IMG/VR virus record: IMGVR_UViG_3300021400_000048
Coordinates: 120,791 to 184,790 of that record
Direction: 5' to 3' (one strand)
DNA from: a virus
Lineage: Duplodnaviria > Heunggongvirae > Uroviricota > Caudoviricetes
Length of the DNA: 64,000 nt
A program made the translations under genes and the position numbers. The notes under the pieces are model-generated. The model was given only the letters and a program-made list of their open reading frames with translations. It searched no databases and had not been told where the DNA came from. Below are positions 10,209 through 63,226 of this stretch, in pieces; position 1 is the stretch's first letter, and every line of letters begins with the position of its first letter.

Positions 10209-10263
10209 ATTATATCATATTAGATGCAAATTGTAAATAGTTTTCATAATGAAAACGCTTTCA
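10209..10263 (-). promoter_or_regulatory. sigma70 promoter plus cre-like operator (drives operon ending in sigma gene)
   Basis: TATAAT 10209-10214, TTTACA 10232-10237, TGAAAACGCTTTCA 10250-10263. Confidence 0.85.
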
Positions 10264-10446
10264 TTATTCTTCTTCTTTATTCTTGTGCTTGCGCTTTCGT
10301 GTAAATGATCCTTTGCCGCGCTTAGGACGGAATATAATAGCTTTGTGCCTCTTCTGTGCTTCTAAGTGATCTTTAGCAGGAATTTCAATAGTGCCAACTA
10401 TATCCTTGCCAGTTATTTCATCATGAATATGTATCCTTTGTTTCAT
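10264..10446 (-). CDS. ArfA-like small basic protein
   Basis: C-terminal IFRPKRGKGSFTRKRKH resembles the ArfA KKGKGSYxRKxKH motif. Confidence 0.6.
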   Translation of the reverse strand: MKQRIHIHDEITGKDIVGTIEIPAKDHLEAQKRHKAIIFRPKRGKGSFTRKRKHKNKEEE

Positions 10447-10448
10447 AA

Positions 10449-10832
10449 TTAATCCTCTCTGTCTTTTCCTAGAAATGCATCAATTACGTGCCCACACTGC
10501 AAGTATTCTAAATATTCATCAATAGTCTCTTGAATCATATTAGCTTCCTCTGTATAAAAATCTGCATAGTCTGACATCTTATTTGCATCAACTAATAGTG
10601 TGAGATCTCTCTTAGCTGGCCTAGCTATTAGGCTATCTACATACTCTTGTAATAAAGTCTTAGCAACTTTGTAAAAGCACTTAGCCCATAACTTTGTTGT
10701 TTTTAGGCTAAGTTTTGCTTCTTTATATTCAGTTAAGTTATTGATGCGCAGCATATTAAGATGCCTCTTTTCTGCTGCGCGCATAATTAATTCAATAACA
10801 TCATCACTTAAATAATCTTCTATTTTATTCAT
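10449..10832 (-). CDS. hypothetical early protein
   Basis: ORF overlapping the upstream stop (ATG 10830-10832). Confidence 0.7.
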   Translation of the reverse strand: MNKIEDYLSDDVIELIMRAAEKRHLNMLRINNLTEYKEAKLSLKTTKLWAKCFYKVAKTLLQEYVDSLIARPAKRDLTLLVDANKMSDYADFYTEEANMIQETIDEYLEYLQCGHVIDAFLGKDRED

Positions 10833-11148
10833 CAGCTTCAATATACTCCAGCACTTCAAAAGTTTCTGTATCTGCTAATTTATTTTCTAAATAAGATGTT
10901 TCATCATAATATCCAGAATTTAAATACTTAGATATTTCAATAAAGATAGCTGAGCAAGAATTGCCTGTACAAGTTCTAACTGTTTTAGCTCCACCTTTAT
11001 AATTAATTACTAAGTATTCTGAAACACAATCAAAATCCTTATTTCTAAGTACAATATAATCAATGCTCTCAACATTGTCTTGGACTTTAGTAATTGCTTT
11101 ACTAATACTGTGTACAAAATTAACTTTTTTATTTAAATATTCTTTCAT
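10825..11148 (-). CDS. hypothetical early protein
   Basis: TAATG-coupled start. Confidence 0.75.
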   Translation of the reverse strand: MKEYLNKKVNFVHSISKAITKVQDNVESIDYIVLRNKDFDCVSEYLVINYKGGAKTVRTCTGNSCSAIFIEISKYLNSGYYDETSYLENKLADTETFEVLEYIEADE

Positions 11149-11681
11149 TAGCATAGTTTGTCTCCTGTAATTAAATTGACTATTGTATTTAAATCTTCTT
11201 CAGGAATAGCTCTATATAGCCAGCCTGTTCCATAAGTATATTCAGTACCATCAGATAATTTTACAGTTAATAAATTATTTTCCTCTAAAGCTTTCTTTGC
11301 TTCTGAATAATCATATCTTATATTTTCTGCTTTGAAGTAGTCATCAAGAAAAGCTTCTTGCTCTTCAGTGCCGGCATGCATACTATTTAAATGATATTTT
11401 TTCCATAATGTATAAATAGCTTTAAATTCTGGTGTATCTACATATTTTGCAATCTCATCTAGACATTGACCACCACAATAAATATCCGAATGAATATGAT
11501 TCCAAATACGACCGCTAGCAGTAAATTCAATTTTATTACCTTCTCTTAAATACAAGTTAATTGTAACGTCTACAAGATTAGCTTTTCTTTTTGATCGATA
11601 AGCAATTTTACCAAATTTAAAAGTCTTACTAATTCGACCACCGCTTACTAATAATAAGTTTAAAACTTCTGATTGTGTCAT
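11148..11681 (-). CDS. hypothetical phage protein (GQCLDEI..LWKKYHLNSMHAG..YGTGW)
   Basis: AAGGAGG RBS; first gene after promoter 11712. Confidence 0.8.
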   Translation of the reverse strand: MTQSEVLNLLLVSGGRISKTFKFGKIAYRSKRKANLVDVTINLYLREGNKIEFTASGRIWNHIHSDIYCGGQCLDEIAKYVDTPEFKAIYTLWKKYHLNSMHAGTEEQEAFLDDYFKAENIRYDYSEAKKALEENNLLTVKLSDGTEYTYGTGWLYRAIPEEDLNTIVNLITGDKLC

Positions 11682-11711: not shown

Positions 11712-11766
11712 ATTATATCACAAAATAAATAAAAAGTAAATAGAAAACGCAATGAAAGCGTTTTCT
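11712..11766 (-). promoter_or_regulatory. sigma70 promoter plus cre-like operator
   Basis: TATAAT 11712-11717, TTTACT 11735-11740, TGAAAGCGTTTTCT 11753-11766. Confidence 0.8.
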
Positions 11767-15469: not shown

Positions 15470-17167
15470 TTATAGATCAAAAATTATATTTTTTAATAAT
15501 TGCATAAATGCTGGCGACATTTTGCCATCTACAAGGAAATCTGATAAATCTCGTTTATTCTCAACAATCTCTTTAACTCTTTCATCTATAGTATCAGCAC
15601 AGCAAAGGATTTTAACAAAGATTGGTTGATCACTAGTAATACGATAAATTCTATCTATAGACTGTTGCAATGTAGCATCAGTCCAAGGAGTATCTATAAT
15701 TATACTATAGTGACATTCAGGCATACTAAATCCTGTTCCAAGCTTTCCATGTGTTCCAATCAGTAAATTGAAATTGTCTGAATTTCGGAATTTAGAAATA
15801 TTCTCACTAACTACTGGATCTGGAATTTCTCCTGTAGCTAGCATCGGATTATACTTTGCTAATTTAATAGCAAGTACTTCGCATGGCTCTACGAATGTGC
15901 TAAAGATCACTACTTTCTCTCCCGACTCTAGTAAGTCTTCTGCTAGTTCCACTGCGCGTAGCACTTTACTCGACTCTATTGGATTACTAGTTAGTACAGA
16001 AGGTGCTGCAGTAGCCTGGCGAAGTCTAGTAGTTAAAGCGAGTAGGTTACCAGGGTGCAAATCCACTAAATCTGCTTCCTCTTTAACACCATCCTTAACC
16101 GCTTCATAAAATTTACGATGCTCGTCTGACATTTCTACAATTTCGTATTCAACTGTTTTTAGTGGCATGTCTGCTCTGACCATATCAAATGTTCTCCTTA
16201 AGCTACATGAATCTAATTCATCTTTTAGTAAATCTAAATCTCTATATCCAATGATCTGTTTGCCTCCGAAACCTCCGAAGTTACAGAAAGTAGATTTGAA
16301 ATTAGTTAATGTTGACTGATCATTATCTGTCCAGCTAAGCATTAGATAAGCTGATAGTGGACTGTTAGTGATCGGAGTTCCCGATGCAGCTACTTGATAG
16401 TCTGCTTTTAGCTTTAGTAGGTTATCACCTTGTTGACTCTGCTTAGTAGCTCTATGCGCTTCGTCAAAGCAGATCATTCCAATTTTGTTCTTACTCTTTT
16501 TGAAAGCCTCTATAATCTTATCATTACGGATCGTAGAGATATTCACTATAATGAAGAATTCTGAAATTTGATTAATTAGCTGCTCAGCTCTTTCTGCTAC
16601 TGTCTTGTATCTAACTGTTCCAGTTTTAGTAATGTATTCCCCAAGGACTACACAGTCTAAATTTGAAAACTTCTGAATTTCGGATTTTCAATTGGTTCTT
16701 AGTGAATCTACACCGCAAATAATCATGCAATGATCAAGCTTACCTCGGTTATGTAGGGTCTCCGCTAAATACATCATCTCTAAGCTCTTACCTAGGCCCA
16801 TGCCGTCTAAAAGCAACCACTTGTTCTTATTGCATAGCCCATAGTTAATTGCATCTATCTGATGTGAGAATGGTTTATACTTAAAGCTTTTAATTTCTTC
16901 CTCACTAAGTGGTGATTCTGAAATTGACGAAATTTCGGTATCAGGCGCCAAGTGAAGCTCTATATCAGCAGCCATAGTTAATGTATCTAAAGCAGTTGCT
17001 AGGCTTGAGGCAGGAATTTCCCAGAACTTCTGAGTCTTATGCCAGCAAGCTCCATGAACAGATTTTACTAATTCTACTAATTGTGGATTATAGGGAAAGT
17101 CGATTCTAAAGCTGGATAAGCCTGGCATCTTAAATGGTGGCTTTAATTCCGTAATCAAAATTGACAT
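15470..17167 (-). CDS. SNF2-family (SF2) helicase, 565 aa under code 4
   Basis: DGMGLGKS Walker A, DEAH, SGTP, helicase-C Q..DRIYRI; TGA 16688-16690 gives the conserved NW..EI.KF; joins two track ORFs in frame. Confidence 0.92.
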
Positions 17168-17194: not shown

Positions 17195-17491
17195 TTAAAA
17201 TAGACTTGTTGTAGTATTACTAAAATCCAAAGCTTCATCTTCTTTAGTAGCAGTTGCTGTGATCTTTAAATCCACATTAAATGGTTTATCACAGAAGTCG
17301 CAAATAAACTTAGTAGCATAAGTTGGCTCAGCATCTTTCTTGTAGCCACAATAAATTATTTTGTTTAGAGGATCTCTGACAATATCTTCTGGTCAGCCAA
17401 GAATATCTCCGGCTTCAAAAAGTTCCTCTAAAGTAAATTGCGCGCCACAGTGTGGACAGGTAATAATAATCTTTGGTAAATTATTTTCCAT
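17195..17491 (-). CDS. zinc-finger protein (CPHC..CDFC), 98 aa under code 4
   Basis: AGGAG RBS; one in-frame TGA at 17393-17395; missing from track. Confidence 0.75.
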
Positions 17492-60093: not shown

Positions 60094-61395
60094 TTAGTCA
60101 ACGATCTTACCAGCAACTAATAGACTCTTGTTTAATAGAGCTTTAGCATACCAAGTACTGAAACCTTGCATTAATCCACCATCAGGTGTACCAAGTAATT
60201 GAGTTGGAACGATTGCCATGTAAGGTGCATATACACCAGCAGAGCTCATCATATCATTTCCGTTTAAGCCTAGGAAGAATTCGCCTTTACCTAGTTCTGG
60301 AGAAACGTATACAGCTACGCCATCAATTTCACCAACTTTGTAAGGACCATTCATCTTAGCGTTCTTAACTGGAGTCCAGCCATTAACGAAACGTAATACT
60401 TGTAAGCAGTCAGCAGCAACTACCATGTAGTTAGGATGGAATTTCTTAGTTCTAGTATAGATGATAGCTTTAGCAGCTTCAAATACTTCTAAGAAACCAT
60501 TGTAATGTTCGAATTTAGAAACGCCGACAGGAAGAGTCTTAGAGAATGTTAATTCAGGAAGAGCTTCACCAGCACCTTCTTTTAACATATTAACGATTTC
60601 AGAGTCAATTTCAAATGCTAATTCACCACAAGCTTGTTCAGCGATTTGTTTGTCTAATGAGAAACCATAATCTGTTTTAGCTTGGAATGCACTGATTTGG
60701 TCATATTTAACAGCAATTCTTCTTGGTTCAGCAACTAATGCGATGTGTTCCATCTTTGGACCAATTGAAGGAATATCTTGAGCTGGAACATAGTTCATTT
60801 GGAATTGTTTTGCAACATATGCAACTTTTACAGCAGCAGCATCAATTTCATCACCATAAACATATGTACCATCAGCTTTAATTGATTTGTAAGTAGCAGT
60901 TTTGATTGCACCATTTTCTTCATAAGTTAAACCATTTGGTTCAGCTTCGAAAGCTAATCCAGAACCAACAGCTTCAACGATAATTTGAGAAGTGTAGTTT
61001 CTACGAGCTTCACCAACTTCGCCTAATCCGAATACACTGTTGAATTCATCACCTTGAGTAATTCCACCTTTATTAGTAGTAGCAACATACTTTAAGTATG
61101 CAACTGATCCACTGTAAGAAGTCATTGGGTGTACAATTACTAAATCATTAGCGATTAATGATGGAACAGCAATATTAGTTAAGTTTAAGCAGAATTTCTT
61201 CCATGCACCTAAATCACTTCTTTGAGTTGCAACTGTATCTAATGCTTCAGTAATCCATCTGTTTGTATTATCTAGTAATACAGCAGTAGTTAATTTAGCG
61301 TTATCTGAAACAACTTTGCCATCAAAGTTTTTAGCAACGTATGCTTCAGCAACTTTAATTTGTCTTGAATAAGTTTCAAGTAAATTTTGTCTCAT
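60094..61395 (-). CDS. major capsid protein, T4 gp23-like
   Basis: VHPMTSYSGSVAYLKY, AEPRRIAVKY, ELAFEIDSEIV, GVYAPYMA; AGGAG RBS. Confidence 0.92.
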   Translation of the reverse strand: MRQNLLETYSRQIKVAEAYVAKNFDGKVVSDNAKLTTAVLLDNTNRWITEALDTVATQRSDLGAWKKFCLNLTNIAVPSLIANDLVIVHPMTSYSGSVAYLKYVATTNKGGITQGDEFNSVFGLGEVGEARRNYTSQIIVEAVGSGLAFEAEPNGLTYEENGAIKTATYKSIKADGTYVYGDEIDAAAVKVAYVAKQFQMNYVPAQDIPSIGPKMEHIALVAEPRRIAVKYDQISAFQAKTDYGFSLDKQIAEQACGELAFEIDSEIVNMLKEGAGEALPELTFSKTLPVGVSKFEHYNGFLEVFEAAKAIIYTRTKKFHPNYMVVAADCLQVLRFVNGWTPVKNAKMNGPYKVGEIDGVAVYVSPELGKGEFFLGLNGNDMMSSAGVYAPYMAIVPTQLLGTPDGGLMQGFSTWYAKALLNKSLLVAGKIVD

Positions 61396-61432: not shown

Positions 61433-63226
61433 TTATTTTTTTAATCCCGCTAAAATTAATAAATCATCATCAATTTCATAGCCATTATCAGGATCATTAG
61501 ATCTTGCTTTAGGTTGTCTTGATTCAACTATTCTAACTTTAGCATCACGAGCCAAGCCATAAGTTGGCTTTGCACTTTCTAACATTCTTTCACAAACTTT
61601 GTCAACATCATCAAAAGTTCAACCTTCATTAAGTCTACCAGTAATTTCACTAGTATTGACACCTAGCATTGATGCTTTCATTTCTACATATTTATAAGCA
61701 GCTTCAAGATATTTAGCTTTATAATTTTTAGCAACACGTGAGTATTTAGCTAATTCAGCTTGATGTTTATCAGCAGCTTCTTTTAATGCAGCTTGAGCAT
61801 TTTCAAGTTCAGATGTTCTTGTAGCTAATTTTTCAGCTAGAACTTTTGACTTATTAGCTTGCTCATTAACGCTTTCTGTAAGTGCTTTTGCATTTGCTTG
61901 GTTAGTTTTTAATGTTTTAATTGTTTGTTCTTTAATGTTTAATTGTTCAGTAAGTTTTTGAACTTCTTTCTTTGCTTCTTTTGATTCAGCAGCTAATGTA
62001 CTTAGTCTTGCAAATGAATTCTTATACTGATTAAGTTCTTCTTCAAGTTTCTTAACTTTAGCATCGCTAACTGCCGCACTCTCTTTAAGAGCTTTTGCAT
62101 CAGTTTCAAGAGCTTCTTTTTGGCGAATCATTTCCTTTAAACTTGCAATAAGTTCTGTTGCCCCGTCATCAACGGCATCTTCAGCAGGAATTTCTTCGTC
62201 TGCAAGAACAGGCTCATCAATTACTGTTTCATCAGTAACATTTTCTGGTTGTTCAGCAACCTCTTCAACATCTATATCATCTGCTTTTGCAGGAATGATA
62301 TCTAAGTTAATATTTAGCTTCTCATCATCAGCTAAATAATTTCAAGCATCAACTTTATATTCAACACCATCAATATTAATAGGTGCAAATTCAACTGGCG
62401 CTTCTTTATTAAAATCATCTAAATGATCAATTAATTCACCAACTGTAATATTAGGAAGTACTGCAGGTTCTTCTAGCTCTACAGAAGCTTCTACTGGTTC
62501 TTCTTCAACTGCTACTTCAGTTTCTTCTGGAGCAACAATTTCAGGTTCACCTACTGTAGTGTCTTCAAATGGTTCATCTTGAACATCTTCATCTAAAGTA
62601 ATTTTTAAATTATTTAACGCTTCTTTAACAATTACTTTATCTTCATCTTTTTCTTCATTTAAAGATTCTTTTAAAGCTTTCTTTAATTTTATATTATTAG
62701 TGTCTAAAGATTCACAAACTGCTAAACGTGCCTTTTTAACAGCAGGAATACCTACAATATCAAATGTTTCTAAGAAGAATGTTTCTGGGTCAACTTCATT
62801 ATTTATATCAACATCGCCAGAACCACGTGAGCTAATACCAGGTTGGAATCCATAATCACATAATGTTTTTAAAATACGACCATTAGGTGTATCAAGAATA
62901 TCAACATAAGCATATAAGTCACCATTTACAATTTTAGGTACTTCTGGAATACATGCACATGCTTTAGACATATCAATTTCTTCTCTATCTGTTGGATGAC
63001 CCAATTCTAAGAATAAACTTTTTGTTGCAACTTTTTCTAAGAAGATTTCATCTTTTAATGCAGATTCTCATAATTGTGCATTATAAAATCTACCATTACG
63101 TGTACTATCTTTTGTTGTTGCGATAGGTCCAAAAAGTCTTCCTAAGATATGACGCTTACTTTTTTCTTCTTCTGTAAGAGGCATCATTTTAAAGGCTTCC
63201 ATAATATTTCTATAATCTTTAGCCAT
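61433..63226 (-). CDS. prohead protease (gp21-like) fused to coiled-coil scaffold (597 aa, code 4)
   Basis: STRNGRFYNAQLW(TGA), LELGHP, GISSRGSG, TFDIVGIPA; three TGA join two track ORFs in frame. Confidence 0.88.

Follow-up and report, generated by a model that had tools for sequence, protein, structure and literature searches.

A Candidate ArfA-Type Ribosome Rescue Factor with a Predicted Hairpin Head in a Phage That Reads TGA as Tryptophan

The Gene and Its Operon

The window analyzed here, a 64,000-nucleotide stretch of DNA, comprises bases 120791-184790 of a 223,464-bp virus record (G000), that of a rumen phage, with direct terminal repeats. On its minus strand lie four genes that overlap or abut, the small ArfA-like gene studied here being the fourth and last. 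The genes, their signals and the parts of the encoded protein are listed below.

11742-11766, minus strand: terminator-like hairpin ahead of the operon promoter-like site
11712-11740, minus strand: promoter-like sequence TTTACT-17-TATAAT with an upstream TG, a consensus match only
11148-11681, minus strand: upstream operon gene of 177 residues, no in-frame TGA, no Pfam or PHROG family
10825-11154, minus strand: upstream operon gene of 109 residues, no in-frame TGA, no Pfam or PHROG family, syntenic in the related locus L002
10449-10859, minus strand: upstream operon gene of 136 residues, no in-frame TGA, no Pfam or PHROG family, syntenic in L002
10454-10459, minus strand: ribosome-binding site GAGAGG within the end of the preceding gene, by direct reading of the letters
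10264-10446, minus strand: ArfA-like gene, ATG at 10446, 60 codons and a TAA stop (10264-10266)
10378-10446, minus strand: residues 1-23, N-terminal head, a predicted beta-hairpin (strands 2-8 and 15-21; from AlphaFold2, the family alignment and hhalign)
10333-10377, minus strand: residues 24-38, predicted helix (25-33) and linker with the motif D-H-[LF]-x-A-Q-x-K-[YF], aligning to ArfA residues ~16-29
10279-10332, minus strand: residues 39-56, basic tail K-R-G-K-G-S-F-x-R-K-x-K-H, aligning to ArfA residues 30-47
10246-10267, minus strand: 9-bp A/U-rich hairpin that begins 1 nt before the stop codon and holds the stop codon in its 5' arm
10209-10237, minus strand: next promoter-like site, -35 at 10232-10237 and -10 ending at 10209, 11 of 12 matches

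The 60-codon frame is a real gene, with its own ribosome-binding site and a conserved family of relatives. It holds no in-frame TGA, and the codon right after its TAA stop is TGA. The TAA of the preceding gene (10449-10451) ends only 2 nt before the ATG, which suggests that the ArfA-like gene is translationally coupled to the 136-residue gene upstream. The tail motif K-G-K-G-S-[YF]-x-R-K-x-K-H is found at residues 42-54, and residues 37-56 read exactly as the first-pass annotation had given them, with four further residues, KEEE, ending the protein.

The sequence at 11712-11740 likely drives the four-gene operon. The palindrome and promoter at 10209-10267, which follow the ArfA-like gene, would serve the downstream gene of 236 residues, and the description of the ArfA-like gene as "cre-driven" in the first-pass annotation therefore fits this neighbor and not the gene itself. 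From the promoter type and the absence of TGA we infer that the ArfA-like gene is expressed early. Palindromes of the T-G-A-A-A-G-C-G-T-T-T-T-C-A type stand before promoter-like sites (10246-10267 and 11742-11766) and fold as short hairpins right after the preceding gene; such elements may be terminators or processing sites besides, or instead of, operators. One sheep-gut metatranscriptome yielded two 151-nt contigs within 11187-11462, in the first operon gene, and none over the ArfA-like gene, and two RNA runs from the likely source sample yielded no contigs, by which neither transcription nor its absence is shown. A scan of ten neighboring genes found a single curated family, an SNF2 helicase at 15470-17167.

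Bacterial arfA is transcribed into a stop-less mRNA, by RNase III cleavage of an internal hairpin or by a terminator, so that tmRNA represses ArfA synthesis. This hallmark is absent from the phage gene, which ends in an ordinary TAA and has no hairpin within its frame, and which would therefore be free of the stop-less mRNA control of ArfA. The hairpin at the stop codon was considered as a source of stop-less mRNA and rejected, being a short, generic pre-promoter palindrome that keeps the stop codon in the transcript; the same element recurs after the syntenic ortholog in L002. Seven of eight family genes examined stop at TAA and one at TGA.

A Family of Small Phage Proteins

Relatives were collected by an exhaustive HMMER search with a five-sequence profile (E <= 1e-3), which returned 76 cluster representatives at 50% identity, nearly all of 50-65 residues; a word-indexed search returned just a few. 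All cluster members examined are metagenomic, and the family comes almost entirely from uncultivated phages. The syntenic ortholog in a 237-kb relative is 68% identical to the window protein. As regards the methods, the whole-family alignment was too diverse for a locus scan and a small alignment found only the known relative, while the motif scan of genome contigs covered the GKGS tail form only, not the K-T-K-Y form (see below); the motif pattern alone has about 600 or more matching stretches in IMG/VR.

Members share an N-terminal segment M-K-x-K-I-x-I-x-D...G-K, followed by the motif D-H-[LF]-x-A-Q-x-K-[YF] and one of two basic tails. In 42 of the 59 aligned members the tail reads K-T-K-Y-T-R-K-x-K-H-K, without the GKG of the ArfA motif; the other form, K-K-G-K-G-S-[FY]-x-R-K-x-K-H-K with a three-residue insert, is found in 17, the window protein among them. 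The best-conserved positions are H27, L/F28, Q31, K42, [YF]48, R50, K51, K53 and H/Y54. AlphaFold2 with the family alignment predicts strands at 2-8 and 15-21, a helix at 25-33 and an extended tail (mean pLDDT 78), and Foldseek of the 60-residue model against the PDB gave no match at E <= 0.001. Among 50,697 deposited phage genomes, BLAST likewise matched neither the region nor the protein; NCBIfam gave no relevant match, and PHROGs a weak match to a family of unknown function. Look-alikes in the protein atlas comprise unnamed clusters only and one viral cluster with ArfA in 11% of its members, which is a lead and not evidence. The JGI name for member P0032 is "stalled ribosome alternative rescue factor ArfA".

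Recurrent neighbors in the relatives are genes for peptide deformylase, ribosomal protein bS21 and RNA ligase, and tRNA arrays, and these translation-related surroundings would fit a role in translation support. Peptide deformylase lies within a few kb of the family gene at L015:8242-8931, L087:3173-3877 and L089:5603-6334, and bS21 lies near it in L015 (16701-16907) and L087 (4904-5113). The stretch L015 1035-13087 is syntenic with 205.9-216 kb of G000, the ArfA-like gene of G000 being elsewhere, at ~131 kb. Member P0042 (L086:15516-19961, the same as L014) is found on an 81-kb Firmicute-like chromosome contig, after two FtsH-like genes and before a metallophosphatase gene; the FtsH-like genes encode AAA and peptidase M41 domains in 419 and 463 residues, as against a 672-residue FtsH 10 kb off, and the surroundings could represent an island or a rescue-plus-protease module.

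ArfA-like segments are also embedded in longer proteins. In a relative known from a 34-kb IMG/VR contig (L028:9137-12646), such a segment, consisting of the mid-region and a tail K-K-G-K-G-S-F-T-R-R-A-K-H-K, occurs ~290 residues into an acidic protein of 1169 residues, the downstream part of which shares 62% identity, over 182 residues, with a 1103-codon frame at G000 192518-195829; this G000 homolog has no ArfA match. Four further long proteins (608-1165 residues; P0261, P0263, P0264 and P0265) hold an embedded ArfA-like segment.

Likeness to ArfA

Pfam ArfA (PF03889, gathering cut-off 25.5 bits) is the only Pfam match of the window protein, at 20.1 bits and E 4.4e-4 over HMM positions 28-44, the last 17 of the profile, and across the 223-kb genome the frame of this protein alone matches ArfA (E 2.2e-4). 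For the syntenic ortholog the score is 24.3 bits (HMM 23-44), and two of ten members scored pass the cut-off (P0059 32.3 bits, P0042 27.6 bits, HMM 14-44); with the window protein below it, the family thus straddles the ArfA cut-off. Over the 59 members, 17 match Pfam ArfA and 18 match DUF7230. Of 177,635 PDB sequences, that of E. coli ArfA matches best, if weakly (E 0.67).

For profile comparison, ArfA sequences were taken from Pseudomonadota, where the ArfA model was found in 30 of 301 genomes sampled. The independent set was drawn from 29 of these and its alignment comprises 28 ORFs, one locus from our own family search and one truncated ORF being omitted. Hhalign aligns residues 26-57 of the GKGS subfamily to ArfA 17-48 (Prob 96.8%, E 2.6e-10, score 51.9) and residues 24-58 of the whole family to ArfA 16-53 (Prob 81%, E 1.2e-5, score 30.4), against scores of at most 13.8 for 40 column shuffles of the ArfA alignment and 16.4 for the reversed alignment. 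Beyond the basic tail, the family motif L-x-A-Q-x-K-[YF] falls in register with L-V-A-Q-P-L-F of Pseudomonas-type ArfA. By this measure the resemblance to ArfA exceeds chance, and we take the window protein to be a genuine, divergent relative of ArfA in its tail and A-site mid-region, that is, a putative homolog of the ArfA sensor half joined to a different effector half. The ArfA-like character asserted in the first-pass annotation thus holds as homology of tail and mid-region, and not as a Pfam assignment of the window protein itself, for which the PF03889 search that had been proposed remains sub-threshold with P0059 and P0042 above the cut-off.

How far the likeness extends can be read from the structures of ArfA (YhdL), the RF2-dependent alternative rescue factor of beta- and gamma-proteobacteria (5U4I, 5MDV, 5H5U; PMC5378476). 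In these, ArfA residues 31-48 fill the empty mRNA tunnel, and a cut after Met40 abolishes function (PMC5378476). The basic tail motif K-K-G-K-G-S-[YF]-x-R-K-x-K-H is common to ArfA and the family, in which it would be the tunnel filler, and the tail positions important in ArfA are the most conserved ones of the family (K42, [YF]48, R50, K51, K53 and H/Y54). ArfA residues His21-Glu30 lie in the A site and pair with an RF2 beta-sheet, and Leu19, Leu24 and Phe25 form a hydrophobic patch that touches RF2 Trp319 (PMC5378476). This mid-region (17-30) aligns to family residues 26-39, with L, A-Q, the aromatic and V/I in register with Pseudomonas-type ArfA and Pro23 and Leu24 not kept. Every one of the 59 members has a Leu or Phe (L/F28) at the place of ArfA L19, and 44 have Tyr or Phe (Y/F34) at that of F25; the window protein is an exception, with His in position 34. 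The N-terminal minidomain of E. coli ArfA (residues 1-20, with Ile11 and Ala18 in its core) orders and opens RF2, and the A18T exchange blocks RF2 activation, not binding (PMC5378476). Here the two part: ArfA residues 1-15 have no counterpart in the family, where the alignment starts at residues 24-26 and a beta-hairpin and helix head stands instead, and Ala18 is replaced by a bulky, near-invariant His27 (55 of 59 members). A predicted complex between the family and B. subtilis RF2 scored 0.19, the mark being 0.32, and, made without controls, speaks neither for nor against binding.

The Genetic Code of the Phage and of Other Carriers

Reading TGA as Trp joins fragments into long open frames at 21-63 kb of the window (for example frames of 1256 and of 1227 codons), and none of ~90 genes ends in TGA. 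Genes for a T4-type major capsid protein (60094-61395) and a prohead protease (61433-63226) lie in the recoded part, and in the 3.5-15.5 kb block with the ArfA-like gene the main genes are without in-frame TGA. Over the whole of G000, a single stop codon separating two long open stretches is TGA in 51 cases, TAG in 5 and TAA in 11; a tRNA with anticodon UCA is encoded at G000 11081-11155, and the genome holds no release-factor gene. The use of UGA as Trp in late genes, as proposed in the first-pass annotation, is borne out by the 51 TGA joins, the UCA tRNA and the absence of TGA-ended genes. The GGAGG-type ribosome-binding sites and the promoters point to low-GC Firmicutes as the likely hosts.

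Six-frame ORF coverage did not discriminate recoding in AT-rich loci, and the flanks of the gene are free of TGA even in recoded genomes; the other carriers were therefore typed from complete records, by TGA codons at conserved Trp or domain positions and by stop usage. Five family-carrying phage genomes or contigs read TGA as Trp: G000, G002/L010, G006, L015 and L011. In the 20-kb locus L010 of G002, a close relative of G000, four single TGAs join long open stretches and three TGA-stopped frames stay open for 172-339 further codons; G006 has 70 TGA joins. In L015 a TGA takes the place of the conserved Trp of a GIY-YIG enzyme, the gene calls of the depositor include 18 TGAs in frame, TGA terminates none of the genes, and a UCA tRNA is encoded; L011 has a TGA at residue 23 within a complete glycosyltransferase-8 domain. 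Many genes are common to G000, G002, G006 and L015, so that the recoded cases count as about two independent lineages.

In other carriers TGA is a stop codon. The 110-kb contig L089 shows synteny with recoded L015, the peptide deformylase gene included, and encodes a family protein that scores above the ArfA cut-off. TGA terminates 9 of the 38 genes of L089, in ATGA overlaps with the next start and with short read-through frames, and occurs in frame in none. In the Firmicute-like contig with P0042, 4 of 11 genes end in TGA, and the genes include a two-component system, diadenylate cyclase, IspDF, FtsH, HPRT, TilS, Maf, Hsp33 and Dus (tilS-hprT-ftsH). L087 has two TGA stops of the L089 kind, and an ArfA-like peptide lies among TGA-ended genes in the viral fragment G003; for L087 and L088, as for the fragments G003 and G004, the code is uncertain. 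Two 175-kb TAG-recoded genomes, G001 and G005, carry a classical-looking mini-ArfA of 45-51 residues inside tRNA arrays. This gene (L003:4929-5084 and L029:3861-4064) ends 4 nt before a tRNA-Glu gene, and both genomes have a tRNA with anticodon CUA and 43-48 TAG-joined ORF pairs.

The 130-kb ENA contig L011 shows a peculiarity of its own. Its family gene (L011:10001-10195) stops at a TGA after residue 57 and, with TGA as Trp, continues as W-F-A-L-L-V to a TAG. The 63-residue alleles of its 90% cluster likewise end in A-L-L-V, with E-H for W-F. In L011 the product length would change with the state of the code. Around this gene, 31 tRNA genes lie within 15 kb (L011:2899-17276), and ARAGORN calls at 17205-17276 a tRNA with anticodon UUA, which would read the stop UAA.

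All carriers typed as recoded thus read TGA as Trp, two TAG-recoded phages have a mini-ArfA in their tRNA arrays, the window phage lacks a release factor of its own, and stop read-through should raise stalling at message 3' ends (compare the available excerpt of PMC6207430). These points favor a role in recoding; against them stand the L089 member with its 9 of 38 TGA-ended genes, the bacterial contig with 4 of 11, the G003 peptide in its uncertain code, and the descent of the recoded carriers from about two lineages. The co-occurrence with TGA recoding expected in the first-pass annotation is therefore not upheld as a specific one: the family appears frequent, but not exclusive, in recoded phages. 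As carriers with TGA as an ordinary stop include both a phage and a bacterium, the protein is probably a general rescue helper and not a part of the code switch. An indirect link, by which read-through raises the load of stalled ribosomes, is possible. Sequestration of RF2, also suggested at first pass, finds nothing in the sequence that points to it; furthermore, an ArfA-type tail needs an empty mRNA tunnel (PMC5378476) and so should not act at a UGA inside a message.

Interpretation

We favor, with moderate confidence, the reading that the window gene encodes a constitutively made phage rescue factor of the ArfA type, the head of which recruits a host release factor. The basic tail (~39-56) would enter the mRNA tunnel of a ribosome that has stalled where a broken or stop-less message ends, the segment ~24-38 would sit in the A site, and the N-terminal hairpin/helix head, in the place of the ArfA minidomain, would hold a host class I release factor active, after which the nascent chain would be released and the ribosome recycled. 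With an ordinary TAA and no hairpin in the frame, the peptide would be made whenever the TGA-free, sigma-70-type operon is transcribed, free of tmRNA-dependent control. The likely benefit to the phage would be more free ribosomes when host mRNA decay or suppressor-tRNA read-through overloads tmRNA. Ribosome binding, recruitment of RF2, RF1 or either, early timing and phage benefit are all predictions from sequence.

The same docking could also serve an opposite end, with the tail entering the ribosome and no rescue following. Such a ribosome plug or anti-tmRNA factor would block the A site and mRNA tunnel of ribosomes that are vacant or stalled, and would thereby either silence host translation or protect ribosomes needed by the phage from tmRNA-SmpB, with its tagging and degradation. 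The conserved tail under an unrelated head in place of the RF2-activating minidomain would suit a plug, as would the bulky His27 at the site where A18T uncouples RF2 binding from activation and an ordinary stop that leaves expression unregulated by tmRNA. We nevertheless consider a plug unlikely, given that the family retains the A-site mid-region along with two of three RF2-patch positions, that a blocker of all ribosomes would also harm the phage, and that one member resides in a bacterial chromosome contig beside housekeeping genes, where a translation poison is less expected.

Rather improbable is a generic nucleic-acid-binding tail of convergent ArfA likeness, which would bind phage or host DNA or RNA (tRNAs, for example) and not the ribosome. 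The peptide is indeed short and rich in lysine and arginine, the window protein stays below the Pfam threshold, several members are encoded within tRNA arrays, and six-frame searches at E <= 10 find sub-threshold ArfA matches in 10 of 14 control genomes. At E <= 0.01, however, E. coli is the only control genome that matches, the match of G-K-G-S-[FY]-x-R-K-x-K-H is position-specific and extends into the non-basic L-x-A-Q-x-x-[YF], and the shuffles that stay at or below 13.8, against 30.4 and 51.9, preserve composition.

We see a slim chance that the hairpin-headed family serves as an accessory to stop-codon recoding in large phages of the gut and rumen. Ribosomes would then stall at the 3' ends of host and early phage messages as the suppressor tRNA reads UGA stops, the peptide would clear them, possibly via RF1 and not RF2, or would hold RF2 inactive there, and the presence of the family in five TGA-recoded carriers and of the sister mini-ArfA in TAG-recoded phages would reflect selection and not only descent. 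Very unlikely, in view of the TGA-using carriers and of a tail that requires an empty tunnel, is the first-pass proposal that the protein engages or ties up RF2 or has a role specific to the UGA=Trp switch, linking an early gene to late recoding.

Returning to the favored rescue factor, the variant would keep the empty-tunnel sensor of ArfA under a different head. If release is triggered, it would constitute a second route of release-factor activation on the ArfA scaffold; if not, it would be a candidate ribosome plug. The partial association with recoded phages offers the testable idea that code switching raises the load of stalled ribosomes, specificity not being supported here. We know of no ArfA in Firmicutes. 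New in this work are the putative hairpin-headed subfamily, which appears to bridge Pfam ArfA and DUF7230, and its frequent, non-exclusive presence in recoded phages; the annotation of ArfA in phages was already known (RXM g10, PMC8953757, and the JGI name of P0032).

Comparison with Known Systems

Compared with ArfA, the family is alike in size, the active truncated form of ArfA having ~55 residues. The two differ in control, the ArfA gene having a stop-less mRNA cut by RNase III and the family genes an ordinary stop, and in host range: ArfA proper was found here in Pseudomonadota samples only, whereas the family is phage-borne, with likely Firmicute hosts. Many Pseudomonas-type ArfA frames (L076-L084) end in L-L-A-A or F-L-A-A, resembling the end of the tmRNA tag.

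The uncharacterized DUF7230 (PF23876) is matched at or just below its cut-off (27 bits) by members with the K-T-K-Y-T-R-K-x-K-H-K tail. For P0002 and P0205 the match (27.4 bits) is limited to profile positions 15-36 of 42, and the heads therefore differ; the window protein, with its G-K-G insert, and its genome have no DUF7230 match. A full-text literature search returned no paper that mentions DUF7230.

Closest in setting are phage RXM g10, annotated as ArfA (PMC8953757), and the mini-ArfA genes of L027 and of L003/L029, which are, like the family, small phage genes with an ArfA tail and an ordinary stop; the L027 protein scores 29.7 bits against Pfam ArfA (HMM 22-44). These have a classical, ArfA-like helical N-terminus, whereas the family has the hairpin head and D-H-L-x-A-Q. 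BrfA of Bacillus subtilis is described in the available excerpt of PMC6881298 as a small factor in a Gram-positive host through which a release factor acts on nonstop ribosomes, and ArfT of Francisella, in that of PMC6299226, as a nonstop-ribosome factor that works with RF1 or RF2. As far as these descriptions go, both are functional analogues by description only, and they provide models for the recruitment of a release factor by a head other than that of ArfA.
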